This document shows positions 3,304 through 60,665 of a stretch of 64,000 bases of DNA, in pieces (positions within the stretch are counted from its first letter, which is position 1; the number at the start of each line of letters is the position of its first letter). This DNA is from an uncultured virus (IMG/VR IMGVR_UViG_3300004097_000004) (taxonomy: Duplodnaviria > Heunggongvirae > Uroviricota > Caudoviricetes > Schitoviridae), in the IMG/VR virus record IMGVR_UViG_3300004097_000004. The stretch is one strand, 5' to 3'. Under the pieces are notes generated by a model, which searched no databases, was not told where the DNA came from, and was given only the letters and a program-made list of their open reading frames with translations. A program made the position numbers and the translations under genes.

Positions 3304-3495
3304 ATGAAACCATCTAAGCAAAGAAAGATGTTGAGAGCAATACAGTCAGACAAGTCACGTAGACGTAATGACAAGCAAGAGATGTTTGATAGACAGACTA
3401 AAGTGATGAATGCTTATGACCCTGAGAGAAAGTTCCGTAGGTATCTCAGAGGTCAGAACATAGACGGTAGAATACACTCAGGATACTGGTGGTGA
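3304..3495 (+). CDS. Basic hypothetical protein
   Basis: AAGGA RBS; Arg/Lys-rich. Confidence 0.65.
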   Translation: MKPSKQRKMLRAIQSDKSRRRNDKQEMFDRQTKVMNAYDPERKFRRYLRGQNIDGRIHSGYWW

Positions 3496-3497
3496 TT

Positions 3498-4554: not shown

Positions 4555-4556
4555 GG

Positions 4557-4575
4557 GCGCACTCTGCGCTGTATT
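4557..4575 (+). promoter_or_regulatory. Putative hairpin promoter, class B
   Basis: GCGCA-CTC-TGCGC, intergenic, upstream of the RNAP1 operon. Confidence 0.55.
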
Positions 4576-4701
4576 TGAAACCAAACATTAAGGACTTAAA
4601 GATGGGTAAACTAGATGTACTACTGCTGTTGCTTGTGGCTACTATTGTGGTGGCCTATGCAGCTTGCTTAATATTCCCAATGTTCACATAAGGATTAAAC
4701 C

Positions 4702-18354: not shown

Positions 18355-18608
18355 TAGAAGATCGTATCAACGCTCTACTGACCAAAGATACCAATAAGCT
18401 AAAAGTTTACACTGATGGTTATGATGGTCATGCACTACGAGCACATAGTTATTGGGGCCACTTAATGCCACGCATTCAACAAGCAACAGAGAATGAACAG
18501 TGTTATAAGGTTGGTAATACCTCGTTCAAAGCATCAGATACTATTACCCATAAAGGTACTAAATATACTGGTTTTGAGTTCTTTAAAAAATTTGGAGATA
18601 CACAGTAA
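18355..18608 (+). CDS. DNA polymerase N-terminal chain, exon 2
   Basis: Hand translation (L)EDRINALLTKDTNKLKVYTDGYDGHALRAHSYW...FGDTQ*; not in the ORF track; spliced product is 665 aa. Confidence 0.88.
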
Positions 18609-39212: not shown

Positions 39213-41399
39213 ATGATTAGACCATTTGAAGAAATGGAGTATCACCCACTCAGCGACAAGCTAGTTAATATCCTACAAACCAAGACTCAGAATGATAATC
39301 CATTATTCTTTCGTGTCATTGTGGCTTATTACTTAGCTCTAGTAGCCTCTCAGATGCGTTGTAGCATCAAAGGATGGGCAGGACGGGGAACTATTCCAGT
39401 TAATGTTTACGCACTTGCCTTGAGTCCGTCAGGAACAGGTAAAGGCCATGCAGTAGGTTTGATTGAAGAACAAGTAATCAACACATTCCGTAAGCTATTC
39501 TATGAGCACACATTTCCAGTATCTGCCGAAAACCATTGTAATGAGTTGGCAGTCAAACGTGCAGCTCGTACAGGTGAAGACGTACAGGTAGAACTTGAGA
39601 AACTGGCTAAAGACTTTCATGGTCTAGGCTCATTACTCTTTACCTTTGATAGTGCATCAACACCTGCTATTAAGCAGATGCGTCAGAAAGTGCTCATGGC
39701 AAATGCAGGCTCTATTAATCTACAGATTGATGAGATTGGTGCTAACTTTACACAGAGTATTGAAGCACTGACTTCTTACTTAGAGCTTTATGATAAAGGT
39801 AAGATTAAAGATAAGTTGATTAAATCAAACTCTGATAATACCCGCTTTGAGACTATTGAAGGTTATACACCTGCGAACATGATGATGTTTGGTACAGGCT
39901 CTAAACTATTAGATGGTGACAAAGTAGAAGATGCTTTTGTAGAAATGTTAGAGATGGGCTATGCCAGACGTTGCCTATTCTCATTCACTGAGAAGATGAT
40001 TAAGCAGGATGCTAAGAGTGTTACTGATCTCTATGCTGACCTGTTTAATGACACTCAAGATGATTGGCTTGAAGAAGTAAGTGATGACTTTGCTAAACTT
40101 GCTGACCTAGCTCTGATGAACAGAGAGTTAGATATCAAGAAGCCAACAGTTATGTATTTACTGGCTTATAAGCTAGATTGTGAAGAGCGTGCTAAGTCAT
40201 TTACAGATAGTCAGAACATACAACGAAGTGAGATGCAGCATCGTTACTTTAAAGTATTAAAACTATCTGGTGCCTATGCATTTGTGGCAGACCAAGAGGA
40301 AATTACTATCAAGGATTTAGAGCATGCCATGAAACTTGTGGAAGACTCTGGAGAAGCATTTGCTGAATTGATGAAACCTCAACGTCCTTATGAGAAACTA
40401 GCTCGTTACTTAGCTAACAGTCCTGAAGAGATTACGTTACCTGACTTGGACCAAGACCTACCTTACTTTAAAGGTTCGTCTACCCAAAAGGATTACCTAA
40501 TCCAAATGGCTACAGCTTGGGGTTACAAGAACGGTGTAGTTATTAAGAAGTCTTATTCAGATGGTGTACTATTCTTACATGCAGATGCAGTCTTTGAGAC
40601 TGATTTGAGTGAAATGATTATTGCCTATTCTACAAGCCAAATTGCTGAAGGGTTTACCCCACATAAAGTTAACTTTGATAAGTTGCCTAATCTATTTAAG
40701 CAGCCTAACTACCATTGGATAAACCATCATGTAAAAGATGACTATCGTAATGAGGTTAATTGTATTAAAGGTTTCAATCTATTGGTACTGGACGTAGATG
40801 GTGGTGTATCCCTATCAACTGTTAAGTTACTGCTTAATGATTACAAGGCCATCTATTACACTACCAAGCGTCATCAGACTGTTGATGAACACGGTAATAA
40901 CTTAGGTGATAGATTCCGTGTAGTTCTACCTATGAATTACACACTACCTATGGACGCTGACAACTACCGTAAGTTCTATGACAACGTGGTAGCTGAAATG
41001 CCATTCCCAGTAGATGCAGCATGTGGTACACGTTCTAAGAAATGGTTAACCAATGCCAAGACTGAGATACATACCAATGATGGTGTACTGTTTGATGTGC
41101 TCCCATTCATACCTGAAACGGTTAAGAATGAAGAGCGTGAAAACAAGCACATGGAGCAGAAAGATTTAGATAATTTAGAACGTTGGGTAATTAACAACAC
41201 TGGTGATGGTAACCGTAATAACATGTTATTGCGTTTTACTATGATCCTTATGGATGCGGATTTATCGTATAATAGAATCCGTGAACGTACTATTGATTTA
41301 AACAGTAAGTTACCAGACAAACTATCAGAAATGGAATTATCTAAAAGTATTTTTCATACTTTGGCTAACCGTATGGTTGCAGCAGGTAAAGAGGTTTAA
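39213..41399 (+). CDS. Primase-like protein (N4 gp43-like)
   Basis: SPSGTGKG P-loop, LDVDGG, RFRVVLP, PriCT-like GNRNNMLLR. Confidence 0.88.
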   Translation: MIRPFEEMEYHPLSDKLVNILQTKTQNDNPLFFRVIVAYYLALVASQMRCSIKGWAGRGTIPVNVYALALSPSGTGKGHAVGLIEEQVINTFRKLFYEHTFPVSAENHCNELAVKRAARTGEDVQVELEKLAKDFHGLGSLLFTFDSASTPAIKQMRQKVLMANAGSINLQIDEIGANFTQSIEALTSYLELYDKGKIKDKLIKSNSDNTRFETIEGYTPANMMMFGTGSKLLDGDKVEDAFVEMLEMGYARRCLFSFTEKMIKQDAKSVTDLYADLFNDTQDDWLEEVSDDFAKLADLALMNRELDIKKPTVMYLLAYKLDCEERAKSFTDSQNIQRSEMQHRYFKVLKLSGAYAFVADQEEITIKDLEHAMKLVEDSGEAFAELMKPQRPYEKLARYLANSPEEITLPDLDQDLPYFKGSSTQKDYLIQMATAWGYKNGVVIKKSYSDGVLFLHADAVFETDLSEMIIAYSTSQIAEGFTPHKVNFDKLPNLFKQPNYHWINHHVKDDYRNEVNCIKGFNLLVLDVDGGVSLSTVKLLLNDYKAIYYTTKRHQTVDEHGNNLGDRFRVVLPMNYTLPMDADNYRKFYDNVVAEMPFPVDAACGTRSKKWLTNAKTEIHTNDGVLFDVLPFIPETVKNEERENKHMEQKDLDNLERWVINNTGDGNRNNMLLRFTMILMDADLSYNRIRERTIDLNSKLPDKLSEMELSKSIFHTLANRMVAAGKEV

Positions 41400-42368: not shown

Positions 42369-42888
42369 GCCAACTCAATCAGAATTAGCTGAGTACCTAT
42401 CCTATGACCCTAGCACTGGTGAGCTTACTTGGATTAAGAAAGCAGGTAACAGTACTGTGTTAGGTAGTAGAGCAGGTAGCACATCTAAATCTGGCTACAG
42501 ACGCTTAACTTTTAAAGGTAAGAATTACCAAGAGCATCATGTAATATGGTGCCTTGTATATGGTAGCTTTCCCGCAGACCAGATTGACCATGAAGATCAA
42601 GTACGAGACAACAATGCCTTGTACAATCTCAAAGCAGTTACTAAGGCAGAGAATGCTCGTAACCGTGCCAGACAATCTAATACTTATTTAGATGAAGCAG
42701 GCATATGGTTTTGTAAGCGTAGAAAGCGGTACATAGCAGAAATTACCCATCAGGGTAAGAAAGTATTTCAAAAGTCTTTTAAAGAAATAGAAGACGCAAT
42801 CCAAGAGCGTGCAGCCAAAGCTGAAGAGTTAGGCTTCCACGAAAACCACGGTAAATCCAATAACAGTAACAGGAAATTTTATGACTAA
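42361..42888 (+). CDS. Free-standing HNH endonuclease (HNH + AP2-like)
   Basis: YDPSTG, H.VIW...G, IDHEDQVRDNN...NL...EN.RN. Confidence 0.88.
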   Translation: MAKPTQSELAEYLSYDPSTGELTWIKKAGNSTVLGSRAGSTSKSGYRRLTFKGKNYQEHHVIWCLVYGSFPADQIDHEDQVRDNNALYNLKAVTKAENARNRARQSNTYLDEAGIWFCKRRKRYIAEITHQGKKVFQKSFKEIEDAIQERAAKAEELGFHENHGKSNNSNRKFYD

Positions 42889-43627
42889 CTTATTATCAGG
42901 TATCAAAACAGCAGACAACGTTGAAGAAGTACAAGACGTACTAGCATCTAACAAGTTTGCCAAAGCCGAAAGCGGTATCTATGACGCTACAATTAAGTAT
43001 GCTTACTTGAAGCCTGCATCAACAGGTTCAATTGGTTTACACTTGGAATTTGAATTAGACAACGGTATCTTGATGAAAGAAACTTTGTATGTCACAAATG
43101 CCAAAGGCGAAAACTTTTACGTAGATAAAAAAGATGCGAAGAAAAAACACCTACTTGGTGGTTACGTAACAGCAGACTCTCTAGCATTATTAGGCGTTCA
43201 GAAAGAGTTGTCAGAACTCAAATCTGAAGAGCGTATTATTAAATTACGTGATTACGATCTACAAAAAGATGTTCCAACCCCAGTTAACATGCTTGTTGAA
43301 TTGGTAGACAAACCAGTACGCATTGGCGTTATCAAAATCATTCAAGACAAGACTAAAAAGTCTGACAAGACTGATAGCAATGGTAAAGCAGTATATGTAT
43401 CTACTGGCGAAACCATGGTCAAAAATGAAACTGATAAAGTATTCCACTTAACCAATAACATGACTGTTGCAGAATTGCGTGCAGGTGCCACTGAAGCTGC
43501 CTTCATTGAAAGTTGGAAAGAAAAGTGGGAAGGTAAAACTTACGACAAGTCAACTACCTCTGGCGGTTCTTCAGCTAAATCTGGTGGCGCTTCTAAGCCT
43601 GCTGCGACTAAGAGCCTATTTAACTAA
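42881..43627 (+). CDS. Single-stranded DNA-binding protein (N4 gp45-like)
   Basis: ESGIYDATIKYAY, ETLYVT; Gly/Ser-rich tail ending KSLFN; synteny. Confidence 0.85.
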   Translation: MTNLLSGIKTADNVEEVQDVLASNKFAKAESGIYDATIKYAYLKPASTGSIGLHLEFELDNGILMKETLYVTNAKGENFYVDKKDAKKKHLLGGYVTADSLALLGVQKELSELKSEERIIKLRDYDLQKDVPTPVNMLVELVDKPVRIGVIKIIQDKTKKSDKTDSNGKAVYVSTGETMVKNETDKVFHLTNNMTVAELRAGATEAAFIESWKEKWEGKTYDKSTTSGGSSAKSGGASKPAATKSLFN

Positions 43628-45735: not shown

Positions 45736-46077
45736 ATGCGAACAATTACTTATGCACTAGCAATCATACTATCAATCACTCTAAACGCTACAGCGGCTCA
45801 GGCCGCTACCGCTTCTTGGTATGGTAAACCTTTCCATGGAAGACTCACTGCAAGTGGAGAGCGTTATAACATGAATGCATTAACTGCAGCCCACAACTCT
45901 CTACCTTTTGGTACTATGGTTAAAGTCACAAACCTATCTAATAATAAGTCAGTTAAGGTACGTATCAATGATACTGGTGGCTTTAAGAAGTACGGTAGAG
46001 TTATTGATCTATCCAAGAAAGCCAATTCAATTATAGAGTGTGGCCTATGTAAAGTAACTATTAAGGTACTCAAATGA
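45736..46077 (+). CDS. Secreted RlpA-like (DPBB) lytic transglycosylase-family protein
   Basis: Signal peptide; [36 protein letters not shown]...VRIND...RVIDLS. Confidence 0.9.
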
Positions 46078-46427
46078 ATTACACTAATATTATTATTATC
46101 GTGATTAGCTTAATCACAATATTTAATATCTACTACCTTTACCGTAAAAAGTGTAAAGAGAATGATAAGCTGTGGGGAAGTTTAAATAAAGCACATAGTA
46201 CCAACCATGAGCTACGGGAAAGACTGGAAATAGTAGGTAAAGTTACACCAAATACTCTATGGCAACATTCTAATGGTGCCGTGTATGAAGTAACTGGGTA
46301 TGCCAATTTACAGTCTAAGGATTTAATTAGATACCCAATAAATATCATCTATAAGAACAGTAATAATGATGTCTGGTGTCGTCCACTGTCTGATTGGCAT
46401 CGTAGCTTTACACCATACAATCCTTAG
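46074..46427 (+). CDS. Membrane-anchored protein with DUF1653-like domain
   Basis: N-terminal TM; WQH.NG..Y.V...IIY...VWCRP. Confidence 0.6.
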
Positions 46428-46435
46428 TATACAAT
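46407..46435 (+). promoter_or_regulatory. Sigma70-like promoter for the ncRNA-tRNA transcript
   Basis: TTTACA (46407-12), 17-nt spacer, TACAAT (46430-35). Confidence 0.6.
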
Positions 46436-46441
46436 CCGTAT

Positions 46442-46986
46442 TTACAGATACCCCCATCAAGGGATACCAGAGTTAAGTCTGGCAGCGTTATGTGACCCAC
46501 AAGCCTGTAACCAACGATAGGAGTCGCTATCTGTATGCCCGAGGTTGCTAACTTCCTCAATAAATAAAGTTAGGCACAGGCCTCCAGAGTTTTTCTGTTT
46601 ATCTGGTAAACTAAAACAGTTCAAACATCAAAAAATTTAGTGCGTGTTCAGTTGCTTTTGGACTAAATTTCTAAACTATTAAAAGCAGCCGTCTGGTGTC
46701 GCAAACACCCGTAGTGGATAGGTAGCGTAAGCTATAGATTGCGTCAGGAAGCTACGTTATAATTACTACAGTTTTATATGAGTACCAACACTATCCGAGT
46801 TGGCTAAGTGCAAAGAACTTATTTGTGAACACTCAGTACAGTCCTCCTTGTGGGGTGTAGGGGCAGCGGGTATCCTGAGAAGCTCATATAAAACTGTTAC
46901 TCTAATACAGGCTATAACATAGCCGGTATAACCACTTTCTGAAATTGCTTGTGTGGTTAGAGGGGTGAAAGTCCTCAACAAGCAAA
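46442..46986 (+). ncRNA. Candidate large structured ncRNA (about 540 nt)
   Basis: No credible ORF; 15-bp perfect helix 46768-82/46883-97, several hairpins and multiple loop pairings; lies between a promoter and a tRNA. Confidence 0.7.
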
Positions 46987-46992
46987 CATTAT

Positions 46993-47069
46993 GTGCCTAT
47001 AGCTTAGCGGTCTAAAGCAGTGAACTCATAATTCATTGACCGTAGGTTCAAATCCTACTGGGCGCACCA
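46993..47069 (+). tRNA. tRNA-CAT (Ile2-like; Met possible)
   Basis: Cloverleaf: acceptor GTGCCTA/TGGGCGC, anticodon loop CTCATAA, T-loop TTCAAAT, encoded CCA; C4/C5 as in TilS substrates. Confidence 0.92.
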
Positions 47070-47075
47070 CTCCAT

Positions 47076-47104
47076 ACCCTACTAGAAATAGTAGGGTTTT
47101 CTTT
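47076..47104 (+). terminator. Rho-independent terminator after the tRNA
   Basis: ACCCTACTA-GAAA-TAGTAGGGT followed by a T-run. Confidence 0.8.
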
Positions 47105-47118
47105 TGAGGGTATACTTT

Positions 47119-47292
47119 ATGAATTTCATAATTAACTGCATTTTTCTTTACTTGTGCTCAATGCTGATCCTAACTGCAGTATGTGTTTTCAGTGGTATAG
47201 ATATAGAATTATTACAAGTAACTAAGATACTAGTTCCAATTATTTTAGTAGTTATGACTATTGTTGAACTACTTTCTAAAGTCCCTCGCTAA
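47119..47292 (+). CDS. Small membrane protein
   Basis: GAGG RBS; two hydrophobic segments. Confidence 0.55.
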   Translation: MNFIINCIFLYLCSMLILTAVCVFSGIDIELLQVTKILVPIILVVMTIVELLSKVPR

Positions 47293-47305
47293 AAGGTATT
47301 AAACC

Positions 47306-47542
47306 ATGGATGCTTATCGTGTATTCCCAGATAGTATGAAGAATAAGTCGTATGATCAAATGAGTAAGGAAGAGCAAAAGCTCATGCGGGATTATGTTAA
47401 AATTTTTAAATACTACAACGAAGATAAAGCACAGTTAATATTTATAACTTTTTCTGATCACACACTATCAAGAGTATTAGTACCTGCCCAATCATTTAAA
47501 GCCAAAGTACGTAGATTTCTATACCGTACCTTTAATCCCTAG
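47306..47542 (+). CDS. Hypothetical protein
   Basis: AAGG RBS. Confidence 0.6.
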   Translation: MDAYRVFPDSMKNKSYDQMSKEEQKLMRDYVKIFKYYNEDKAQLIFITFSDHTLSRVLVPAQSFKAKVRRFLYRTFNP

Positions 47543-47599
47543 GAAACTATTACTTGATGTAGTAGTATTAACCCAACCAACTTATAAGAGAGTTTTAAA

Positions 47600-47821
47600 A
47601 TGGCCACATACGTATCATCATCTTCATCAGCAGGCGGTATCGGCTTCTTCGGTCTAGTCTATGCAGGTATCATCTTAGCTAAAGTATTTGGCTTTGTTGA
47701 TTGGTCTTGGTTCAACATTCTATTACCATTCACTATTGTATTTGGTATTATTGTATTCTGCTTTGTTGCATACTTACTTATCCTGTTAGTTGAGGGCATC
47801 TACAAGAAGTATAAAAAGTAG
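47600..47821 (+). CDS. Small membrane protein (GGIGF...LAK..G.VDWSW family)
   Basis: Widespread phage TM motif. Confidence 0.7.
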   Translation: MATYVSSSSSAGGIGFFGLVYAGIILAKVFGFVDWSWFNILLPFTIVFGIIVFCFVAYLLILLVEGIYKKYKK

Positions 47822-48368: not shown

Positions 48369-51300
48369 TTAATTGCCAAACAATCCAGTGATGGCATCTA
48401 CCGTAGTAATGTTAGCCACAGCCTCATCGTAGTTAAAGATACCTGCAGTGAATGGGTTGTTACCTATACGACCTAGAGCGAACGGATCCATAACACCTGC
48501 TAAACCAGTAAAGTGCTCCACACCTATGTGCTGTGCAATAGTACTACCTGCTTTCTCATTCAGTCTACTTAACAGAACCTGTTGGAAACGGATGAAGAAC
48601 TTAGTAAACATAAACAGACCCATACGGTTCATATAGTCTAAACCTTGGCTTGTAGGTACATCATAGTTAATGAAGTTATCCTGAGCCACAGCAATAGCGT
48701 CCTGCATACTCTTACCCTCTTTCATAAGTTTGGTAGTCAATGAATACTTGGCAGCCAAATCAGAGAACTGTGTGCTGTGAGCCATGAAATCATGTAATGG
48801 TGTACCCGGGTTAGTAACAGCCCAGTTGAAACCCTCAACAACTTGCTTGGGTATATTGTCACCAATCTCTTCCAGTTTCTTCTCAAAGTCAGATTTGAAA
48901 GCTGTATCATCCTTACCTACCTTAACGTCCTCAACGATAGTAGACATAAGACCTGCTTGCATGAAGTCATGCATAGGGTTACGTTCCATTGCTTTCATTA
49001 TCTTACTACGCTCACGTTTCAAGTCTCTAAGCTTATCAGCTCTGTTCTGATTGATGGCAAGCTCTGTCTCAATCTCAACAACACGTACAGCCAGTTTTCT
49101 GTATGAGCCACCATTACGCCATACACTCACAAAGTCTTTAGCCTGCTGAACAGGTGGTACACCATGCAGTGAAAGGAGTAATGAGTTGGCTACAATATTA
49201 CCAATTAGAACTTGTACGTTACGGATAACCACAAAGTCTTTAATCTGACTGATAGCATATTGCCAACTACGCTCACCTTGGATAGCACGCATCTGAGCCT
49301 TATCTTTAAATATGGCTGTAAGCACATTGGTCAAAATCATTTCAATAGCATTCTTCTCACCTGTCACTTTCTCAAACATCTTAGACATAGAGTAAGCTCT
49401 GAAACCAAATACAGAATTATAGACATTGGACCGGACTACGATAGGGTTGCCTTTACCAAATAATTTAGTGGCTTCATTCTTAAATGCATAAGGCATCATT
49501 CTGTACATGGTACGTACATTCTCATCAGATGAGTTAGGATCAAGAGTCACAAACTGTCTTGGATCATTAGCATAACTGGCTGCGAAGTCTTTATGCAGCT
49601 TCTGTGCTAAGTCAATCTGAGACTCCCTAATCTCAGGCTTGAACTGAATGTTACTCTCTAAGGCACCAAGTAAATCAATAGCATTGTTATTACGCTCTAA
49701 GTAAGTATCCCGCAGTGCACCACTCATCTCATAGCCATAGCTTATCAGTGTACCCTCAGACGCATAGTTAGCGATCAACGTACCTCGCTTAGAAGTATTT
49801 GGGTCAAACGCTGTATAACGCTTGCTAGCAGCCCTGTTTCTACGGTCAGCTAGCTTTGCAGCCTGAACACGGTTAAGGTCTTGCATACCCCCTTCATCGT
49901 ACACTGTAGTACCCTTGGCATGAGTGTCTTTCATATCTAAGGCACCAGACACGTAATCCTGATATGAGATGTCATTATGAAACATCAAAGTTCTAGCTGA
50001 AGTTCTATCATGACTATCCTGTTTAAGATCACCTGGCGTTACCTCAACCCATCCTGCACTCTTCAATGAGTCAATCTCTTCAACAGTGTCCGCAAACTTC
50101 AGAGAGCGTAAGTGGTGAGTCTCCTGTGGCATATAACCCTTAGAGAAGTTATACGGGTTATCATTGAAGTCCTCTTTACTACGGGTAATCATATCTCTGT
50201 GAGCCTTTATAGTAGCTTCTACACCGTTAGGGTCTAAAGCTATCAACTCTTTAAGACTTGTACGATTAACCTTATCTGTCATGGTTACAGCATACAGACT
50301 GGCTAACACATCAATGTTATCACGTAGGTCAGTATCCATATCAGACATAGAAGACTCATACCAACTACCTAAACCAATAGCAATGCTCTCAGCATTCTTG
50401 ACCATGTGATCAGTGGCTACTTCTTTTGCCATATATAAACCAAGTGATTTAGTCTGCATTAGCATGTCATTACCGTTAGGTAGATTGGCTAGCTTGCTTT
50501 CATAGTTAGCAATCTCTGTTTGCAGTTTGCTGTCATCAGTAAGTAGTTGCATAACTTTCTTAATACTAAAGCCATTGTTCATAAGGCTAGACATGTCAGT
50601 ACGCAATGCAACCTGAGTCATACTATTCATCATGTCTTTACCAATATCTTTGGCACCGTCTTTAAAGTATTTAAGAATGATAGCCTTGGCCTGAGTCTTA
50701 ACAGTGTTACGTGTTTGACCTGCCTTACTTACTGCACGGATACTCTGCTCTACTTCTTGCTTCATACCTTGTGTACGTGCAAGCTCATTAAGTATCTCAC
50801 CAAAGCCTGATTGACGGTTACTACCATCTCTACCTGCTGCAGCATCATTAGCCACTACTTGGCTTACCAATCCCATGACACCTGTACGCTCTGTCTTAGC
50901 AGCGGCAGACAATACACTAGACAATCCTGATATTGCAGTAGTACTACTTGCAGCAAGATTAAGGCCTTTGAACATGGCTTTAACTAACTTATCTGTCACA
51001 AAGTTGGCCGGTGTTGTAACAGTGCTAGTCACAGCGTTGTACACATTATCAATCATATGTGTTTTGTTGGCTCTGGCCTTAGCATCAATGTTAGCCAAAT
51101 TTTTGAATAGTACATCAAGCTCTGATGGAGTGTCTAAGCCATTAGTACTCATGTACTTAGAGGTTATCCAACTGACCATATCTGCAAACACAGCCATGAT
51201 CTTATTGAACCAACCCTCATTCACTTCAGCTTTAATACTATTTTCTTGCTTGCTAAGAATGCCTCTGAACTCTGCACTGCTTAGTGATAGTGCATACAGA

Positions 51301-54300
51301 CGCTCTAGATGCTCTTGCTTATTCAACTTGTCATTGTTCATAACATAACCAAGCTGCTTACGTGCAATAGCTTTCTCAGTAGCTGTAGCAGTAGATGGGT
51401 CTTTAAGGAAGTCCTCAACCTTTAACTGTCTGATTATGTTGTCATAGATTTTAGACATCTGTGCTGCAGTCTTACTTCCACTATGTTTATCAAGATACGT
51501 CTTACCCACAGCTTTAAGTATCTCCATAACATGCAGCTCTTTATCAGATAAAGTGAAGCCTGCATTAAGCGCACGTTGACTGACTTTCTTTATAATGTCA
51601 TCAGTCTTCTTAGCTTCTTGAGCACTACTCTCATAGTTAGGGGTAATGATAGAATCAATCAAACCATCTAAGTGTGCATCAAACTCATTTGAGATAGAAC
51701 CTTTACCTAATGACTTCAGTACATCAGAGCTTCTAGCGGTATTGAAGTTAATAGTACCTTGTCTGCTCTGCTGATATGAGCCTTTACTCACTGCATCGGC
51801 TAGACGCATAAAGGTGTTCACATTGTTATCAAACTTCTTACTACCACCAAAGAAATCAGTAACAGCTTTAATGAATGCACGTAGTCCCGTACTGGCTTTA
51901 CCAGTAGGTGCTGTGTATTTACCTTTAAGGTTTTCACCGATGAATTGCAGGAAATCTGACTCTGTTAAGCCATACGCAATTAGCTCTTCTACGTTCTCCA
52001 GTTCACGTGTGACTGTGAACCTGTTCTGATCTACTCCACGTAACTCAGTTAACATATCACGTAGCTGCTGCACTGCTTCCTGTGTTACAGGGTCTGTACT
52101 CTTAGTGATATTGTGCACAGATACTGCATGGATTATCTCATGAGCCAACACAACAATCTTTTCACCTGCAGGTATTTTAGAGAACACTTTTCTAGACAAC
52201 TGAATTATGTTGTCATTACCTGCATAATAACCTTGATAACTAGAGTTGTTATTAGGGCCAATAATTTCAGGCACCCATTCAAACTTAATATCAGGATTAG
52301 TGGCAGCCAGTCTATTAGTTACGTAGTCCATAAGAGTTTTTACTGGTGTCACACTACCACCAAGTTCTTCATCAAACTCTGTGAATAATTCAGTCATTGT
52401 TTGAACACCAGTAATCTCTACAGACTCTTCAACCTCGGAAGGGCCCTTTTTTTGGTCTAACACTTTAGTATTAATTTCAAGAATAGCACCCATTGAATCT
52501 AGTAAATCATTGGCTTTACTCTCTGCTTCATCTACTAACTTACTATCACTATTAGAAGTTAGGTATGGAGCGCCTTCACCCGCATACTGATGCACTGTCT
52601 CAAGTCTACGGATGATATCAATCTTATTGGCCTGTGAAGTTCTCACATCGTCTATGATGTTACGTAGTTGATTATTCAAAGAACGTGCACTCGTATCAGT
52701 CATTTTACTTCCGTTGATACCATTAATACCACTTACCACGATATCTCTGTACATAGCTTTATTGACTTCACCAGACTCAACCATAGCTGCTACAGCTGTG
52801 AATGTATCAATCATGGTTTTAAGAGATTGGGTCTGTGTAGCGTAATCTCGTAGTCCCTCATACGTAGCTTTGTTCTGCATGTTAACCATAGCTCTAAAAC
52901 CAGTTAAACCACTGATACCTGCATCATGCACATTGATATTTACCTGACCACCAAACGCACTTGTCCAACCGGCAATGAACGCATCCATACCTTGAACCTG
53001 AGCTGAGTTACCAAAGACACCTACTGACTTCTGTATCTGCTCTTTGACTGGTAGGTTAGAACTCGCTTCAATCAATACACCATCCGCATTTACACGATAA
53101 CCAATTGACTTACTCTGACGGTCTTGTTCAACCTTAGATGTTTCATCAAGCATAACGAAGTTGCCTTCATTGTTATCACTTGAATGGTTGTATGGTGTTT
53201 TAACTGTAGGTACTAAAGCCATTAATTTAGGTGCTACATTCTCAGTAAAGTATTTAGCAGGCATGCCTTCAGCTTTAAACAATTTGTCTGCTTTATCCTT
53301 AGTCATACCACTATCAACTAGAGTCTGTACATAGGCTTCATTACCCTGCTTGACCAGTACATCACGCACAGTTAAATAAGCTTCAGAGGCAGCTCCCTGT
53401 ATTCTGACGTTAAGGTCACGTTGTTCAATAAAGTCTGCAGCATATTCCTGCATAGCTTTCTCAACAACACCGCCAAGTTCAGCTTCATACTTAGTACCTA
53501 GTTTATTGAGTGTCTTCATATCAAACCAATACTCTAAGATATCCTTACCTGTAGGTAGATCAATCTCAGTGCCTGACAGATACTCTAAATTATCCTTTAG
53601 TAGTTTATGTTCAGCTACAACTTTAGGGTCACTAAAATCTTTCTTAGCTAACTGTTTCATAGTACCTTTAACGTCTTGTAGGAATTGACCATAAGCCAAT
53701 GACTTAATACGCTTCATGCCTGCACTATAACCAAATGGAATTAGTAGTGCTTTCATATTGGCACGCTCAAAGAACGAAGTGTTTAAACGCAGTAATATGG
53801 CTTGGTCAGTTGGTTTACCCTTAGCATTTAACAAGTTCTTACCCTGATTCCACTTACTTGTGAATACCTTTTTAAGAACAGTACCAAACCCTTCATAGTA
53901 ATCCTGTAAATCCTTATCAGTACGAGTATCAAAGAAGTTGCTGTACTTACTACCTTTCACGAACATACCCACCTGAGATAGGAACCTGTCAGTAGCTGTG
54001 CCTAGAGATACATTGGCTAGTGCAATACCATTGTTAACACCATCAGAGTGAATACCAATACGTGTATTGAAACTTACATCACCTGACTCTAAAGCCATGG
54101 TTAATTTAGTATATTCCAGTAGACCACGTAGAGACTCTGCACCACCCTTCCATACAGCCACCAGTTCAGCAATCTTTGCAGTATCTGCTTTAGACATGTT
54201 GTTAGGCTTTGTAAGGAGGTTACGAGCTGCTGCGACTGCTTCAGCTACCAATGGGTCAGTAGACATGTACTCATGGAATGCAGGCAAGAACACCTCACCT

Positions 54301-57300
54301 GGAATCTTGTCTTGAGTAAACCCTTTGCTGTACTTAGTACCTTCTAATGCTTTCTCAATGATTTTCTCAGTACCCTCTGCTCTCTCACCCAGTGCTTTGT
54401 AGAATAGGCCAAGTTCAGATAGTTGACCATCTTCATTAAAGAAATTAGGCACATCTGCACGCAAACCATCTAACTCAACTGTAGAATTGAAGTTGTCGTA
54501 TTGACCCATAGAACGATGCAATAAGCTGCTCTGGAAGTTGAACATGTTAGAGTTATAATGCATACGGTTGTTCTTAGCTCCATAAACACCATCATAAAAT
54601 CTAACCAGTTCACCATCTGCTTGTCTAGGTAAGCTACCAATGAAGTCATTGGCATTCTCTAAATCCCGCATGATACCTTCAGCAGCAGACACTAGACTTG
54701 CTCTATCATCTTTATGTTCTTCTGCCAGTGCTTCATCTGTTACTAGTGCACCAATCATCTGCAATGCAGCATCTCTGTCCACACTGATTAGAGTGTTAAG
54801 TGACTTAAACATATCCTCATCAATAGATATGGCTTCGTCCTGCATCTTCTTAGTGAATACAGTTTGGATAGCTGACGTTACTGCTTTAGTACGCTTGATG
54901 GTTGTCTTAACCTTACTGCTAGGTTCTAACGTAGGCGCGCGTAAACCAATCTCAATACCAAACACTTTCTCCATATAACCAAGAGTGTTCTTGTTCTTAA
55001 ATGCAATTTCATTTAAACGTCTATTCTTCTGACCACCATTCACACCACTTACTGAAATGAAGTTAACAACACCATTTGTATTTAGTGCTTGTGTGCTGCC
55101 ACCTCTAAGAGTTGTATCAAGATCGCCACCTACATACTCAATGTTAGCAATATGCTGTGTGGTAGGTATTGTGTGTAAGTGGATTAAGTTAGCTGATTGC
55201 ATAGCGTTGATAGCCCACTCACCTAAGCTACTCTCAAAGGCAGATTGAGCTTCCAATTTAACAAAGTCAGTAGCTTTGATGTTCATAGCACCTGCGGCCG
55301 CTTTACCTATACTAAGCATACTGTATGTTTTTATCTCAGTAAGGAACTGATACTGCTCTCTGATACGGTCAGGTATATAAGCATCTTCATCCGGATTAAG
55401 GTTTAAGAATTTTTTGATATCTTTATCATTTGACAGATTTTTATTACCAAACTCAATCGCCCAGTTATAGGTAGCTAGTGCCACAGATGTGAGAGTGTTC
55501 TCATCAATCTGCCCATCTTCTTGTAAGAAGCCTTTCAAATCCTGATAATTGAAGTCAGCTCCAGTTTTATCTGATTTACCTTTACTCTTGAACGTATCTA
55601 ATAGATGCTGTGACAACTCATCTCTATAAGCCAAGAAGTCTACTAACTGATCTCTCTGTGCCTTTGTAGGGCTTTCAGACACGAGTGAACCCAATCCTTG
55701 CATTAGATCAATCTTTAGCTTAGACGCTAGATTAGCCACACCTGATAAAGGCTTAGACTTGGCAGCTACTTGAGTGAAACCGGCCAGTAGTTGATTGCGC
55801 TGCCAGAACTCTTTACTACGCTCAATCTCTACCTCTTCCTTGATAACATCTTGGAATACCTTGGCTTTACCACCCTCACTTGATTTGAAGTTAACCTCAT
55901 TATTCTTAGACTGAAGCTCTACGGTACGTGATGTGATATCCATCATACGGTCAAACAAAGTAGCTGTTTGGTCGTTACTGGCAATGTTAAAGAACGTGCG
56001 TAAGCTATTAGTTATTTTACGGAATAAGCTACTCTTAACCTTACCCTCAGTAGTAGACACAGAACGTAGGAACTTACCGATAGCAGGGTCACTTACTACA
56101 GCACCTAGTAATTTCTCATTACTAGATAGAGCATCTAATAGTCTGGCTTTCTCTTTACGTGTAAGACCCATGTACTCTTTACCGCTGAGAGTAACAATAC
56201 GCTCAATATCACGCTTGGCTTTAGACAAATCATAGTTAAGCTGAACCATCTGTTTACCTTCAGCTTTGATATTCTCATACGTACTGTCTTGCAAACGAAT
56301 AGCCAAATTAGCAGTAGCACTGTACACAACCATACGTGTAGTTTCTTGTAGGATATTACTACCCTTACTATTAACCTTTACGTAGATAGTATTGTTGGAT
56401 TTATCATAGCTACTTGCTTTCACTGTCTCAGACAAACGTATCTTTAAGCCGGGATTAAAATTAAGAATAGGCTTAATGATTGAAGTATATAACTTACGTT
56501 CTTTAGTACTGACTGTCTCTGACTCAATGTAATCAAACAGAGTGTCAATAACAGGCTCAATTACTGTAGCTTTACGTAGCTCTTTAGGGAAAGTACGCCC
56601 CTTAACATTATCAAGTTCAGGTGTAGTATCTACACTTGCTTCGCTGCTATCTGTTTGTTGTAACACCTGCTTAATACCATTATCTGCTTCAATCTGATCA
56701 ATGATATCGCCATCAGTCATCATGTCATCAAATTCTAGTATGCTACGTACGTTCTTACCTTCAATATCGGTATTGTCCAGTACAACTTTTGCTACTCTGT
56801 TATCTGACTTATTACGCACAATATTAAGCGACCATTGACCACCAGTATTACTAGGGCCACTATAGTTGTTTCTGTATCCACGCTTACCAACAGTAGAAGT
56901 AGTGGTTAACTCATTACTACCTTGTTGTGGTTCAAGTGGGTTAGAAGCCACAGTAGATAGCTTACCTTTACTATTTACAGCACTTCGCTTAGGTACAACC
57001 TTTCTAGGTGCATTAGCCAGTAGAGTAGTATTATCTACTCCTAATTTGCTCTGTAGCTGTTCTTGTAGGTAAGCGTACGTCTTAGGTGCATTGGCCTTTA
57101 ACTTCGCCCCTACGCCCACATCAGGGAACATTACGTTACCTGTTTCAGCAGTAGCTAATACCTTATCAATAGCTGCAGTATTTTTATCTAATGTTTCATC
57201 TGTAGCAACATTTAACCCATATTGATTTTTCTCATTAAAACCAAATGTATCATCAGTTAAATAGATCGCATCATCTACAGTGTCATCTTGCTCAGCAAAT

Positions 57301-60300
57301 ACTGTTGCAGGATTAACTGGTACTACAGGGGTTGGAGACACACTCACAGGAGGCACAGCAGCCGTAGGCGTAGGTGCCGATGCAGTAGTAGTCGTTACAG
57401 GCGTAGTGGGTGTAGGCACGACCACAGGAGCTGTTACCGTTGATGCTACAACTGGGTTCTGTGTATTAATCAAGGTGCTTGATATAACACCCATTGCTTC
57501 CCTAAAATCAGACAGATCATTAGCTTCTGACTGGATAGCTTTAGTTAAACGGTTAGGCCCATTAAATGATAAACCACCTGCTTTCTTAAATTCTGCTTCT
57601 GTGTAAGCACTACGGTCAACAATACCCCATTCATTATTTTCATTAGGAGCAATGGTCAAAGGATTATCACGAGTAGCTGCAGCTATGTTGTCTTGGATTA
57701 ATGTATTTTTACTTGCATGGTTATCTACAAAGTTATCAAGCATACCTAAATACTTATCGGCAGTGTCAGTGTCATTCGTACTTATACTACGAGTGATCAC
57801 TTCTTCATACTGTTGAATACCCAAATTAGACTCTAAAGTAGTAGCACCTTTCTTACCCTTATAGATTTCTGTGCTAACTTTATCAATGTCATTACCTGAT
57901 TTGATTTTCTCTTTGATACCTAACAGTTTACGTAAAGCCACTTTCTGCGCTTGACTGTAAAGAGGACTCTCTTCAATCTCTTTCTCACCTAACACAGAGA
58001 CTAAATCTCTTTTACTTTTGCTTATGTACTTCTCATTTTCGTCTATGAAGGCATCAGTAGATTCTATAAATTCCTCAATGTTTTCTTCTTCTGTAATATC
58101 TACTTCTTCATCAAAAGGAATATCAAGAGGTGCAATCTCTTCAGCATCATAGTCTACCGTTTCTTCTGTATTCTCAGCACTAGATTGACCTGCAATCCTA
58201 CCTGTAACAGACACGTGAATATGACCACCTGTAGCCCCCTCAGACGGATTAGTATATTCATTAAGAACTTTGATTGTGAAACCCTGAGCTTTAGCAGATG
58301 CTTCCAACTTCTTAACGATATCAGCACTTTTAGCTTTGGCTTCAGCTTGCGTACCTTTAATACTGAAATCAAATGCCTGTCCTTTAGGGTGTTGACCGCC
58401 ACGACTACCATGGAAATCATCATTAAAAGATGCAAAATGAACTAGTTCATCACCAACTAAGTCTTGAGTTACTTTAGCAAAGTCAGCAGTATATCCACGT
58501 ACTTCACCATTACCTATAGATTCACCACTCTTAATACGTAGACCTTTTAACTTATCATTACTGACAAAACCATTACCTGAATTGGTAGCAGTACCTACTG
58601 ATCCACCACCTAAGTAACCACGTACTTTACCTACATAACCATCTACTTCAGCTTTACGTGCTGCACTGCCTGAGAATGTACCATTCTTATAGCTACGTAC
58701 ACCGCCACGGCCTGCATTGTATGCAAGGATAGCGTCATCCCAATTGCCAAACTCTTTATATGACTTAGCTAAATCTTGTACGGTAGCATCTACAGCAGCA
58801 TTAGTAACACCAATACTATCCCCTGTTCTTAAGCCATATTCTTTACGGAATATACCAGTGTGTTGTAGTAGACCTACCGCACCTGTTGGACTCTTAGCTG
58901 AGAACTTACCTCCTGACTCTGTTGCAACAATAGCTGTAATTACCCGCATAGGTACACCAAATTTCTCTGATGCTTCTTTGAAGTAAGGAACTTTAGCTAC
59001 AGCAGATTTAGACACTTCCCAAGTTTTACGTTGGTCATCAGACATGTGAGAAGTATCGTCAGAATTAGCAATACCTGTTGAAGTGGTAGATACTTGGTCA
59101 TCTGATCTTGATGGAGTATAACTACCTATCTCTGTACCTCTATCTGCAATAGCTGCATCGTAGCGGGCAGCACGTACTGAAGCAGTGCTTTCAAGTGACT
59201 TAGACACATTGCCTATCATTTCTCTGCTCTGCTCAATAATCTCAGCCTTATTAGCTTTAACACTATTGATATGGTTTTTAACTTCAGCTTCCATTGGTGC
59301 CACATACTTAGCTTCAAACTCTATCAAGTCATTGATAAGCTTTGTCTGTGTTGCAATATCTGTCTCACTGTCAATTGCTTTTTCCATTTCGTCTACACGT
59401 GTGTAGATAGCTTTACTTGCAGCAACAACAGTAAGCTCCGCTTGTGCACGCTCTTCAGGATTACTTGAACCACTCTTGAATAGTGCATCTTTATACGCGC
59501 GTACAGGATTGAATTTATCACTGGTGATATCAACGTTTTCTTCAGCTGTACCATTCTTTCTAGTATCTCTCTGCTCTATAGCAGTACCTACATCAGCTGT
59601 GGCGCTACCTACGACTCCTGGAAGTGTTGTGGCTACGTTAGCATTTATCCCAATTAGCAGACCCTGTGTACCGGCTGCTAGAGCACCCTGATCCAAACGA
59701 ATACGTTTATCCCAGTTATCTATTACTTTCTCGGCAGACTCACCTAAGAACTCTTCTACACCCTCTACTGGAGCACCTATAGCAGCACCTTTAAGAGTAC
59801 GAGCACTGTTACCTGCCATACCTGATAGGATTGTATCCATATCGCCATGTGGGGCTAGTCTTGCGAAACCACCAGTAATACCACCCACAGTTAGGCCTTT
59901 GGCAGCAGCAGCCATAATAGTGCGAGCATCTACATCGTTGTTAGGGTCATCAGCAGCTTCTGAGATAGCGTTACCAAATACTGTACCACTGGTAGCTGTA
60001 CCTACTCTTGCAGCTGCACTCATCTTGTTTAAGCCACGAATACCACTGACAACCTTACCACCTGTGTACATCTCAACCACTGACTGAGGAAGTACCTTAG
60101 CAGTATCAAGTAGTAGCATATCAGGATTATCTTTGTAGTAACCTGCAACAGCTCCTGCACGATCTGTCTCAGACATGTTGGTATTCTTCATGATACCGTC
60201 TAATAAAGCTTGCTTGTTCTTAACAAGATCAGACTTATTCTCTTGTAAGAATTCCTTGGCTTGGTTTAACCCTAGTGCCTGCTTAGTGTTATTGATAGTT

Positions 60301-60665
60301 AGGTCAGTATCAACATCTGTACTACCTTTAGTAACCATGTCATAAATCATTTTGTGACCAGAACCTGCCAGAGCAGCACTAGATGCTAAACCACTAGCAG
60401 CACCAACTAGGCCTGAGCCTATAGCATTAGCCGTATCTTTGAGCACAGCAGTAGCAGTATTGGCTTTAGGCACACGGTTAGCTGCCAGTGTGTTTGGCTC
60501 ATACACTACTTGGTTTGGTTGGTTGAAGTCAGGTATAGGTTCAGCTACCTTAGTGGCTATACCATTTTTAGTCTTGAAGGTATCAAGTGTTGTTGCAACG
60601 TTAGCACGTGCATTCTCAAGATCAATTTTGTTCTGCTCAATATAATCTGTAATGGTATTCGCCAT
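48369..60665 (-). CDS. Virion-encapsidated RNA polymerase (vRNAP, N4 gp50-like), 4098 aa
   Basis: NNRMHY, motif A SDGVNNG, motif B RANMKALLIPFGYSAG, motif C VHDA; C-terminal QFSDL.AKY...FINY; no Cys seen, as in N4 vRNAP. Confidence 0.93.
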   Translation of the reverse strand: MANTITDYIEQNKIDLENARANVATTLDTFKTKNGIATKVAEPIPDFNQPNQVVYEPNTLAANRVPKANTATAVLKDTANAIGSGLVGAASGLASSAALAGSGHKMIYDMVTKGSTDVDTDLTINNTKQALGLNQAKEFLQENKSDLVKNKQALLDGIMKNTNMSETDRAGAVAGYYKDNPDMLLLDTAKVLPQSVVEMYTGGKVVSGIRGLNKMSAAARVGTATSGTVFGNAISEAADDPNNDVDARTIMAAAAKGLTVGGITGGFARLAPHGDMDTILSGMAGNSARTLKGAAIGAPVEGVEEFLGESAEKVIDNWDKRIRLDQGALAAGTQGLLIGINANVATTLPGVVGSATADVGTAIEQRDTRKNGTAEENVDITSDKFNPVRAYKDALFKSGSSNPEERAQAELTVVAASKAIYTRVDEMEKAIDSETDIATQTKLINDLIEFEAKYVAPMEAEVKNHINSVKANKAEIIEQSREMIGNVSKSLESTASVRAARYDAAIADRGTEIGSYTPSRSDDQVSTTSTGIANSDDTSHMSDDQRKTWEVSKSAVAKVPYFKEASEKFGVPMRVITAIVATESGGKFSAKSPTGAVGLLQHTGIFRKEYGLRTGDSIGVTNAAVDATVQDLAKSYKEFGNWDDAILAYNAGRGGVRSYKNGTFSGSAARKAEVDGYVGKVRGYLGGGSVGTATNSGNGFVSNDKLKGLRIKSGESIGNGEVRGYTADFAKVTQDLVGDELVHFASFNDDFHGSRGGQHPKGQAFDFSIKGTQAEAKAKSADIVKKLEASAKAQGFTIKVLNEYTNPSEGATGGHIHVSVTGRIAGQSSAENTEETVDYDAEEIAPLDIPFDEEVDITEEENIEEFIESTDAFIDENEKYISKSKRDLVSVLGEKEIEESPLYSQAQKVALRKLLGIKEKIKSGNDIDKVSTEIYKGKKGATTLESNLGIQQYEEVITRSISTNDTDTADKYLGMLDNFVDNHASKNTLIQDNIAAATRDNPLTIAPNENNEWGIVDRSAYTEAEFKKAGGLSFNGPNRLTKAIQSEANDLSDFREAMGVISSTLINTQNPVVASTVTAPVVVPTPTTPVTTTTASAPTPTAAVPPVSVSPTPVVPVNPATVFAEQDDTVDDAIYLTDDTFGFNEKNQYGLNVATDETLDKNTAAIDKVLATAETGNVMFPDVGVGAKLKANAPKTYAYLQEQLQSKLGVDNTTLLANAPRKVVPKRSAVNSKGKLSTVASNPLEPQQGSNELTTTSTVGKRGYRNNYSGPSNTGGQWSLNIVRNKSDNRVAKVVLDNTDIEGKNVRSILEFDDMMTDGDIIDQIEADNGIKQVLQQTDSSEASVDTTPELDNVKGRTFPKELRKATVIEPVIDTLFDYIESETVSTKERKLYTSIIKPILNFNPGLKIRLSETVKASSYDKSNNTIYVKVNSKGSNILQETTRMVVYSATANLAIRLQDSTYENIKAEGKQMVQLNYDLSKAKRDIERIVTLSGKEYMGLTRKEKARLLDALSSNEKLLGAVVSDPAIGKFLRSVSTTEGKVKSSLFRKITNSLRTFFNIASNDQTATLFDRMMDITSRTVELQSKNNEVNFKSSEGGKAKVFQDVIKEEVEIERSKEFWQRNQLLAGFTQVAAKSKPLSGVANLASKLKIDLMQGLGSLVSESPTKAQRDQLVDFLAYRDELSQHLLDTFKSKGKSDKTGADFNYQDLKGFLQEDGQIDENTLTSVALATYNWAIEFGNKNLSNDKDIKKFLNLNPDEDAYIPDRIREQYQFLTEIKTYSMLSIGKAAAGAMNIKATDFVKLEAQSAFESSLGEWAINAMQSANLIHLHTIPTTQHIANIEYVGGDLDTTLRGGSTQALNTNGVVNFISVSGVNGGQKNRRLNEIAFKNKNTLGYMEKVFGIEIGLRAPTLEPSSKVKTTIKRTKAVTSAIQTVFTKKMQDEAISIDEDMFKSLNTLISVDRDAALQMIGALVTDEALAEEHKDDRASLVSAAEGIMRDLENANDFIGSLPRQADGELVRFYDGVYGAKNNRMHYNSNMFNFQSSLLHRSMGQYDNFNSTVELDGLRADVPNFFNEDGQLSELGLFYKALGERAEGTEKIIEKALEGTKYSKGFTQDKIPGEVFLPAFHEYMSTDPLVAEAVAAARNLLTKPNNMSKADTAKIAELVAVWKGGAESLRGLLEYTKLTMALESGDVSFNTRIGIHSDGVNNGIALANVSLGTATDRFLSQVGMFVKGSKYSNFFDTRTDKDLQDYYEGFGTVLKKVFTSKWNQGKNLLNAKGKPTDQAILLRLNTSFFERANMKALLIPFGYSAGMKRIKSLAYGQFLQDVKGTMKQLAKKDFSDPKVVAEHKLLKDNLEYLSGTEIDLPTGKDILEYWFDMKTLNKLGTKYEAELGGVVEKAMQEYAADFIEQRDLNVRIQGAASEAYLTVRDVLVKQGNEAYVQTLVDSGMTKDKADKLFKAEGMPAKYFTENVAPKLMALVPTVKTPYNHSSDNNEGNFVMLDETSKVEQDRQSKSIGYRVNADGVLIEASSNLPVKEQIQKSVGVFGNSAQVQGMDAFIAGWTSAFGGQVNINVHDAGISGLTGFRAMVNMQNKATYEGLRDYATQTQSLKTMIDTFTAVAAMVESGEVNKAMYRDIVVSGINGINGSKMTDTSARSLNNQLRNIIDDVRTSQANKIDIIRRLETVHQYAGEGAPYLTSNSDSKLVDEAESKANDLLDSMGAILEINTKVLDQKKGPSEVEESVEITGVQTMTELFTEFDEELGGSVTPVKTLMDYVTNRLAATNPDIKFEWVPEIIGPNNNSSYQGYYAGNDNIIQLSRKVFSKIPAGEKIVVLAHEIIHAVSVHNITKSTDPVTQEAVQQLRDMLTELRGVDQNRFTVTRELENVEELIAYGLTESDFLQFIGENLKGKYTAPTGKASTGLRAFIKAVTDFFGGSKKFDNNVNTFMRLADAVSKGSYQQSRQGTINFNTARSSDVLKSLGKGSISNEFDAHLDGLIDSIITPNYESSAQEAKKTDDIIKKVSQRALNAGFTLSDKELHVMEILKAVGKTYLDKHSGSKTAAQMSKIYDNIIRQLKVEDFLKDPSTATATEKAIARKQLGYVMNNDKLNKQEHLERLYALSLSSAEFRGILSKQENSIKAEVNEGWFNKIMAVFADMVSWITSKYMSTNGLDTPSELDVLFKNLANIDAKARANKTHMIDNVYNAVTSTVTTPANFVTDKLVKAMFKGLNLAASSTTAISGLSSVLSAAAKTERTGVMGLVSQVVANDAAAGRDGSNRQSGFGEILNELARTQGMKQEVEQSIRAVSKAGQTRNTVKTQAKAIILKYFKDGAKDIGKDMMNSMTQVALRTDMSSLMNNGFSIKKVMQLLTDDSKLQTEIANYESKLANLPNGNDMLMQTKSLGLYMAKEVATDHMVKNAESIAIGLGSWYESSMSDMDTDLRDNIDVLASLYAVTMTDKVNRTSLKELIALDPNGVEATIKAHRDMITRSKEDFNDNPYNFSKGYMPQETHHLRSLKFADTVEEIDSLKSAGWVEVTPGDLKQDSHDRTSARTLMFHNDISYQDYVSGALDMKDTHAKGTTVYDEGGMQDLNRVQAAKLADRRNRAASKRYTAFDPNTSKRGTLIANYASEGTLISYGYEMSGALRDTYLERNNNAIDLLGALESNIQFKPEIRESQIDLAQKLHKDFAASYANDPRQFVTLDPNSSDENVRTMYRMMPYAFKNEATKLFGKGNPIVVRSNVYNSVFGFRAYSMSKMFEKVTGEKNAIEMILTNVLTAIFKDKAQMRAIQGERSWQYAISQIKDFVVIRNVQVLIGNIVANSLLLSLHGVPPVQQAKDFVSVWRNGGSYRKLAVRVVEIETELAINQNRADKLRDLKRERSKIMKAMERNPMHDFMQAGLMSTIVEDVKVGKDDTAFKSDFEKKLEEIGDNIPKQVVEGFNWAVTNPGTPLHDFMAHSTQFSDLAAKYSLTTKLMKEGKSMQDAIAVAQDNFINYDVPTSQGLDYMNRMGLFMFTKFFIRFQQVLLSRLNEKAGSTIAQHIGVEHFTGLAGVMDPFALGRIGNNPFTAGIFNYDEAVANITTVDAITGLFGN

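Follow-up and report, generated by a model that had tools for sequence, protein, structure and literature searches.

A candidate pseudoknot RNA module shared by phages and prophages within a modular non-coding region beside a tRNA gene of an uncultured Schitoviridae virus

The window analysed here, a stretch of 64,000 nucleotides from an uncultured virus assigned to the Schitoviridae (IMG/VR record IMGVR_UViG_3300004097_000004), carries on its plus strand genes with PHROG matches to a primase (39213–41399), a Sak4-like protein, an HNH endonuclease, an SSB (42881–43627) and a RuvC-like resolvase, and on its minus strand an ORF of 4098 amino acids (48369–60665). The nearest GenBank phages are Schitoviridae, with identities of at most 52.6% for the primase and at most 41.6% for the SSB, and the window is therefore regarded as part of a distant N4-like phage. 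IMG/VR holds one twin contig, which is 99.8% identical across 900 compared bases. Adjacent to the region described below lies a gene (45736–46077) for a small secreted RlpA-like protein (DPBB, PF03330), for which 2712 homologues of 62–198 amino acids were found, many of them from contigs of 70–97 kb. The window phage has a single tRNA gene, located downstream of the RlpA-like gene. In two loci whose RlpA-like protein is 80% identical to that of the window, L088 and L089, arrays of 20 (1920–4692) and 18 (111–2649) tRNA genes, respectively, are found upstream of the corresponding gene. Directly 5′ of the first tRNA of the L088 array there is a match to the abiF RNA (1877–1914; 35.2 bits, gathering score 37). 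At the syntenic site of the Schitoviridae phage phiA41 neither a comparable gap nor a tRNA was found.

The gap between the upstream neighbour, a gene of 117 amino acids, and the downstream tRNA-Met(CAT) gene comprises 565 bases (46428–46992). Only ORFs of 31–71 amino acids are present in it and none is credible; none of the five searched against PHROG matched at E ≤ 0.01 (best E 0.072), and the largest, of 71 amino acids on the minus strand (46766–46981), has no family support. The description of this region as the longest ORF-free stretch of the genome holds if that ORF is disregarded; otherwise it is exceeded by the 394 nt at 18214–18607. The latter, a second stretch without any ORF of at least 60 amino acids, gave no Rfam match at gathering score.

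Both 3′ elements that were said to bracket the gap are present on the plus strand: a tRNA-Met with anticodon CAT and encoded CCA (46993–47069), found by ARAGORN and by Rfam (tRNA, 67.4 bits), and an intrinsic-terminator-like hairpin of 9 bp followed by a T-run (47076–47097), found by terminator scan. At the 5′ side the sigma-70-like promoter TTTACA-17-TACAAT (46407–46435, plus strand) is likewise there, with 10 of 12 positions matching and about 17 nt 5′ of the first hairpin of the module called A below; such sites are no commoner in the region than expected (8 observed versus 9.9 ± 2.8), and the promoter may be irrelevant because transcription of the middle genes in N4-like phages is attributed to a phage RNA polymerase. 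A 12-nt tandem duplication (ATACAATCCTTA / ATACAATCCGTA; 46415–46440) yields two TACAAT boxes 14 nt apart where the stop codon of the upstream gene lies.

In the original prediction the gap was proposed to be one RNA, about 540 nt in length, with pseudoknots between distant parts and possibly related to the ROOL and GOLLD RNAs. The complementarities on which this was based are real, the seven pairs tested being perfectly complementary as written, and the pairings of the loop at 46642–46661 with 46681–46687 and 46826–46832 can also be seen in the sequence. The gap contains 14 perfect inverted repeats of at least 8 nt versus 3.2 ± 2.1 in shuffled sequences; the excess of the shorter ones is mostly apparent, since 8 of the 14 are windows of a single 15-bp repeat. 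This 15-bp repeat is longer than any found in 300 shuffles (maximum 13), and among the complementarities proposed it alone is clearly above chance. Contrary to expectation for one co-folding RNA, the minimum free energy of the whole gap (−147.9 kcal/mol) did not differ appreciably from that of shuffled controls (−141.1 ± 6.9; z −0.99), 19 of 100 of which folded as well; the minus strand gave z −1.57.

Membership of ROOL or GOLLD was not borne out: Rfam gave no match to either in 46300–47200 at E ≤ 10 with permissive filters, nor in the whole window at gathering score, and the recommended comparison of the gap with the ROOL, GOLLD, intron, RNase P and tmRNA models returned the tRNA only. Group I and group II introns were discarded, as there is no Rfam match at the gap and the flanking genes are not split; the search method works, because the same search finds a group I intron (40 bits) in the Ralstonia phage DU_RP_I. 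The latter match (gathering score 50, E 5e-8) lies over an endonuclease VII ORF around which the major capsid gene of that phage is annotated in pieces (1853–2445). RNase P RNA was rejected with both the bacterial and the archaeal covariance models. For tmRNA neither Rfam nor ARAGORN, at default or 90% thresholds, gave a match, and a permuted tmRNA proposed by ARAGORN at 80% is spurious, borrowing the real tRNA-Met and having the tag VNTQYSPPCGV. No decayed tRNA was detected in the gap by Rfam at E ≤ 10 or by ARAGORN at 90% thresholds. When GenBank phages were searched with the whole gap, the tRNA was the sole match.

Contigs from four other metagenome runs were compared with positions 46000–47600 by means of difference tables, not alignments. 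All four runs contain contigs with pieces of the gap, in every case with unlike flanks. These contigs carry the pieces separately and once in another order, which argues against one co-folding RNA of 540 nt. Short assembled contigs break at variable sites, so the division into modules could partly be an effect of assembly. Five modules, A to E, all described for the plus strand, were distinguished. The 3′ boundary of module A (46540/46541) is a junction in three contigs from two runs. Module B (46541–46634; fold z −1.02) contains the hairpin CUAACUU/AAGUUAG (46547–46553/46567–46573) and recurs from 46540/41 to 46606 in runs X3 and X7 with 6 differences. Module C (46635–46765; z −0.30) contains the hairpin GGUGU/ACACC (46695–46699/46705–46709) and a second hairpin, UAGC-GUAA-GCUA (46723–46734); it recurs from 46635/52 to 46760 in X7 and X3 with 16–17 differences, among which two double changes (46696 G>A with 46708 C>U, and 46698 G>A with 46706 C>U) keep the first hairpin. 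The variant is a single lineage found in two runs.

Module D (46768–46897) consists of the 15-bp perfect inverted repeat (46768–46782/46883–46897) around 100 nt. A contig of 5469 nt from X3 carries 46770–46891 of it with 7 differences, and there, unlike the order in the window, D is joined through three letters to the start of B. D is the only module that folds clearly better than shuffled sequences (z −2.36 on the plus and −3.42 on the minus strand), the signals of A, B, C and E being weak (z −0.3 to −1.65). As the signal of D is strand-symmetric, a palindrome at the DNA level is equally possible; the two substitutions listed for it (46818 C>G, 46833 U>A) disrupt helices of the minimum free energy structure. 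Module E (46905–46989; z −1.65) ends 3 nt 5′ of the tRNA and contains a hairpin (46910–46915/46919–46924), a candidate H-type pseudoknot (46929–46935/46953–46959 with 46945–46952/46978–46985) and an inner hairpin (46960–46964/46972–46976), the last two proposed from complementarity. It recurs in all four runs (46938–46989, 0–4 differences), as does the tRNA (46993–47069, 1–11 differences), and the sequence after it differs from run to run and by eye resembles the 5′ parts of different tRNAs. None of the runs listed as containing the window's stretch is an RNA run; in two runs labelled RNA-Seq (the label is a guess), the contigs contain module E and the tRNA only.

A search of IMG/VR viral contigs with a module E pattern gave 15 matches, of which one was the twin contig of the window and 14 were unrelated hairpins, strings like GUGAAAGUCC forming a common hairpin. 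The hairpin GGGG-UGAAAGU-CCCC of these 14 unrelated contigs (L210–L223), preceded by TAG, frequently lies between genes with a T-rich tail behind it, and may therefore be a common terminator hairpin. Among 401 Moraxellaceae genomes compared with the gap of the window, module A was the only part matched, in two genomes, and modules B–E did not recur there or, apart from the twin contig, in IMG/VR; eight other matches were stretches of 23–35 nt in other parts of the gap (E 6e-4 to 8e-3).

Module A (46452–46540, plus strand), delimited with homologues, a profile HMM and pair counts, is the part of the gap that is widely conserved. The 160 loci gathered through the RlpA-like gene were searched with the gap, which gave a match of about 45–95 nt (window 46475–46569) in L011, L088 and L089. 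Later members came from pattern scans and short BLAST searches (L173, DU_RP_I, L194, L197, L199, L289 and L203), and a covariance model together with a DNA search added L292, L293 and a truncated copy, L304. The full-length distinct versions now number 12: those of the window, L011, L089, L173, L187 (DU_RP_I), L194, L197, L199, L289, L203, L292 and L293. In the profile HMM the members score 47.6–59.2 bits and chance pattern matches at most 16.2 bits; the score of the window against the 10-member family HMM (48.3 bits, E 9e-13) is partly circular, because the window is among the 10 members. Module A was found in 4 of 151 Psychrobacter genomes, in 2 of 151 genomes of the family sample and, in the class sample (151), in the centre genome only; a search of GenBank phages with the L089 element gave noise only.

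The family follows a common plan: one or two variable hairpins, then an invariant CAGCG, and then a 5-bp stem, S2 (GYGAC/GUCRY), enclosing a loop of 26–28 nt with near-invariant ACCCAC, CCUGU, CGA and GAGUC; the core is about 60 nt long. CAG(C)G is able to pair with CCUG inside the S2 loop (stem S1), which would make an H-type pseudoknot. In the window the variable part corresponds to the predicted pairings P0 (46453–46455/46461–46463) and P1 (46467–46471/46478–46482), S1 to 46483–46487/46504–46507, and S2 to GUGAC with GUCGC (46492–46496/46523–46527) including one G-U pair; S1 and S2 come from pair counts. A variable upstream hairpin was predicted in all 10 members folded (z −0.3 to −3.7), with stems as different as CCAGA/UCUGG (window), CCAGC/GUUGG (L203), CCAUG/CAUGG (L173), AGCGG/CCGCU (DU_RP_I) and CCACU/AGUGG (L292). 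The minimum free energy structure of the window's own module A omits S2.

In 11 sequences, 92.4% of 131 cells of the pseudoknot model can pair, and double changes occur in 3 of its 12 pairs (AU to GC in S1; CG to UA and GC to CG in S2). S2 is paired in 98% of cells with two compensated pairs, and S1 in 100% with one compensated cell (L292, AU to GC), three of its four pairs being invariant. The covariation score is higher than in all 500 shuffles, a control that flatters the model, which was itself built from these sequences, and controls with slid stems pair in only 25–44% of cells. Resting on four compensated cells in 11 related sequences, the covariation gives modest support to the putative pseudoknot. 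The G-U pairs of S2 are compatible with the plus strand alone, which is the strand of the tRNAs, and a reading frame in the core is excluded because indels of 1–2 nt break every frame. The original prediction is thus upheld in part, in that the stretch is non-coding and has conserved structured RNA in it, module A having homologues with compensatory changes and a hairpin of module C being compensated; the single RNA of about 540 nt with long-range pseudoknots is not, its pieces recurring apart and once reordered and its fold giving z −0.99.

For the loop of module A no target in cis was apparent: the complements found in 10 members reached 6–9 nt, as did those of 10–199 of 200 shuffles, and their positions were not consistent across the members. 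Its cross-module partners in the window are at chance level (36 of 200 shuffles) and are absent from 7 of 9 other members tested, and the proposed long-range pair 46503–46509/46906–46912 likewise lacked comparative support, sites complementary to the loop in cis not being enriched.

The contexts of module A are diverse, and modules B–E are absent from all 11 of those outside the window. It lies within the tRNA arrays of L088 and L089, where two extra weak tRNA-like matches fall within the gap that holds it, in a cluster of tRNAs in L173, and 90 nt upstream of tRNA-Arg in L011. In the T7-like DU_RP_I it is found in the leader upstream of the capsid gene; there it is an insertion, about 80 nt long, that is missing from P-PSG-11 and RsoP1EGY, whose flanks are 92–95% identical. 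The order is HNH, module A, TerS/TerL in L197 and module A, HNH, TerS in L292, and in L289 the downstream ORF is HNH-like by eye. L203, L292 and L293 are Psychrobacter loci (prophages or islands), and in L293 the prophage genes lie on the strand opposite to module A. A free-standing RNA gene would fit L203 and L293, because the next gene in both is on the other strand. A strong intrinsic terminator is found within about 20 nt 3′ of module A in 6 of the 12 full-length members, by scan in L203, L292 and L293 and by fold in L194, L197 and L199 (z −4.1 to −4.6 with a U-run). In L293 a sigma-70-like promoter site, GTGACA-17-TACAAT, is placed as in the window; the promoter scan upstream of module A found none in L203 and L292, so that such a site is present in two of the four members of the window-like subtype. 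Outside the window, module A would thus take one of two forms, a free-standing gene closed by a terminator of its own or, within phage tRNA arrays, a spacer.

A P4-type integrase gene lies upstream of module A in both L203 and L304, and the near-identical ends of this gene adjoin the module in each (L203 1440–1570; L304 1500–1600). L203 has the full module, L304 only its 3′ half and the terminator, the pattern expected if the module A RNA gene were the attachment site of the island. Taken together, the contexts show the pattern that a self-contained, horizontally moving small-RNA cassette would leave.

With known phage RNAs of the ornate kind, ROOL and GOLLD, the gap shares its non-coding nature, its association with a phage and its position next to a tRNA gene, and a similar total length only if the whole gap is one RNA. 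It differs in giving no covariance-model match at E ≤ 10, in its separable modules and in having a widely conserved part of just 60–110 nt or so. A likeness is also offered by the tRNA gene cluster of phage T4, which encodes stable small RNAs, species 1 and 2. Like these, module A would be a small non-tRNA RNA among phage tRNA genes (L089, L173), probably also in being released by tRNA-processing enzymes; unlike them it is found in prophages too, there as a free-standing gene with a terminator, and the two are likened by description, not by sequence. Regulatory RNAs from tRNA spacers or trailers, such as 3′ETS-leuZ of E. coli, are short unstructured sponges and work by base pairing. The proposed module A RNA would resemble them as a by-product of tRNA processing acting in trans, and differs in its compact predicted pseudoknot and conserved loops and in that no complementarity to a target was found. 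The immunity RNAs P4 CI and P1 C4 are processed rather than terminated, and their loops pair to sites in the same transcript. They too are small structured phage RNAs, and one member of module A adjoins a P4-type integrase; module A has no Rfam C4 match and its cis-complementary sites are not enriched. With the sponge RNAs of the RsmX/Y/Z type module A shares hairpins followed by a terminator. The weak match of L203 to rsmX (27.2 bits, E 0.1) falls well short of the gathering score, 56, and a conserved GGA loop motif is missing from the bases invariant in the family; membership was therefore rejected.

Rfam 15 returned only tRNAs and sub-threshold noise for the window, its relatives and the other module A members. 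The noise (rsmX, TtnuCD11, CRISPR-DR49 and terminator-driven Trp and Leu leaders) was dismissed. As judged by these searches, module A belongs to no Rfam 15 family. Four of its core strings are absent from the searchable literature. Structured-RNA candidates of phages, about 10,000 in all, were catalogued in 2023 (PMC10690425); the supplements that can be searched gave no match to the core strings or to the contig numbers of the window's twin, L088 or L173, and the family may still be in the catalogue because three supplement files are not searchable. Module A would be of the kind of phage-borne small structured RNAs and tRNA-array spacer RNAs, and would not make a new class of ornate RNA.

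In the reading that best accounts for these data, which we think has about an even chance of being correct, the gap and the tRNA make up a non-coding unit running from promoter to terminator, its small structured RNAs probably separated by tRNA-processing nucleases. About five separately folding RNA modules (A–E, 65–130 nt each) would be followed by tRNA-Met and the terminator. We infer that transcription would start at the sigma-70-like promoter or reach the unit by read-through from upstream genes, that RNase P would cut at the 5′ end of the tRNA and that other tRNA-processing nucleases would help to free the modules, each then a stable small RNA. In trans, module A would bind through its conserved loop a factor conserved throughout the Proteobacteria. 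The case that module A is an RNA gene is fair, given its conservation and strand, the covariation, the terminators, the one promoter and the finding of A as an insertion cassette; the evidence on module C is suggestive, and that on B, D and E weak. A further step is put forward tentatively, as a possibility we hold to be doubtful: module A would represent a new phage and prophage class of pseudoknot RNA, a cassette of about 80–110 nt moving among unrelated carriers (N4-like and T7-like phages, siphophages with HNH and terminase genes, and Psychrobacter islands) and binding a conserved proteobacterial host factor through its invariant loops. Its roles might be those of a decoy against a defence nuclease or of a modulator of RNA polymerase or tRNA processing. 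In that case the window would show a non-coding RNA operon in which several such RNAs depend on the tRNA as maturation handle.

A different account sees in the gap a graveyard of selfish or recombined DNA, mobile or shuffled elements tolerated in an accessory region with no RNA function, D being MITE-like with 15-bp terminal inverted repeats and A an insertion. Much of what was observed would suit it: the recent insertion in DU_RP_I relative to close relatives, the perfect inverted repeats at the ends of D with equal signal on both strands, the shuffled module order in another contig, the truncated copy of A beside an integrase and the phiA41 syntenic site devoid of such a region. What makes it rather unlikely in our view is that the compensatory, G-U-containing pairs of A suit one strand only, that A constantly has the orientation of the flanking tRNAs or genes, and that terminators follow it in half of the full-length members, together with the compensated hairpin of C; mobility and RNA function can, moreover, coexist. 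That A is instead a cis-acting leader, an attenuator or antiterminator for downstream tRNAs or late genes with B–E as tRNA processing signals, appears improbable. In L292 and L197 A and a terminator do precede HNH and TerS genes on the same strand, and A lies upstream of the HNH-like ORF of L289, of the capsid gene of DU_RP_I, and of tRNAs in the window, L011, L089 and L173; yet L203 and L293 have their downstream gene on the other strand, the genes that follow A have no function in common, and a conserved alternative antiterminator pairing is lacking.

One large RNA of about 540–640 nt with multiple pseudoknots, forming a new class similar to ROOL and GOLLD, seems to us more improbable still. 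The long ORF-free stretch between a promoter-like site and a tRNA with terminator, the many complementarities, some of them linking distant parts, and the occurrence of ROOL and GOLLD near tRNAs in phages speak for it; against it stand the empty Rfam search at E ≤ 10, the z value of the whole region, the pieces found apart and in another order, the 11 contexts in which A occurs without B–E, and the chance-level long-range partners of its loop. Very improbable, and already largely refuted, is decay of a protein-coding gene or of a tRNA array. The 18–20 tRNAs of L088 and L089 in the same neighbourhood, where the window has one, would agree with such decay, but the gap holds no tRNA-like remnant (Rfam E ≤ 10, ARAGORN 90% thresholds), its small ORFs have no family match, and the indels of the conserved core disrupt all reading frames.

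For the annotation of phage genomes the region carries a caution, in that a long ORF-free stretch rich in complementarities need not be one ornate RNA. Phage tRNA arrays are usually annotated as tRNAs and meaningless spacers, and here at least one spacer appears to be a conserved pseudoknot RNA. Since module A is found as a spacer, as a free-standing gene and as a recent insertion, phages may trade small RNA cassettes as they do tRNAs and morons, and if the partner of module A were found, a new way of taking over the host or countering its defences through RNA could come to light.
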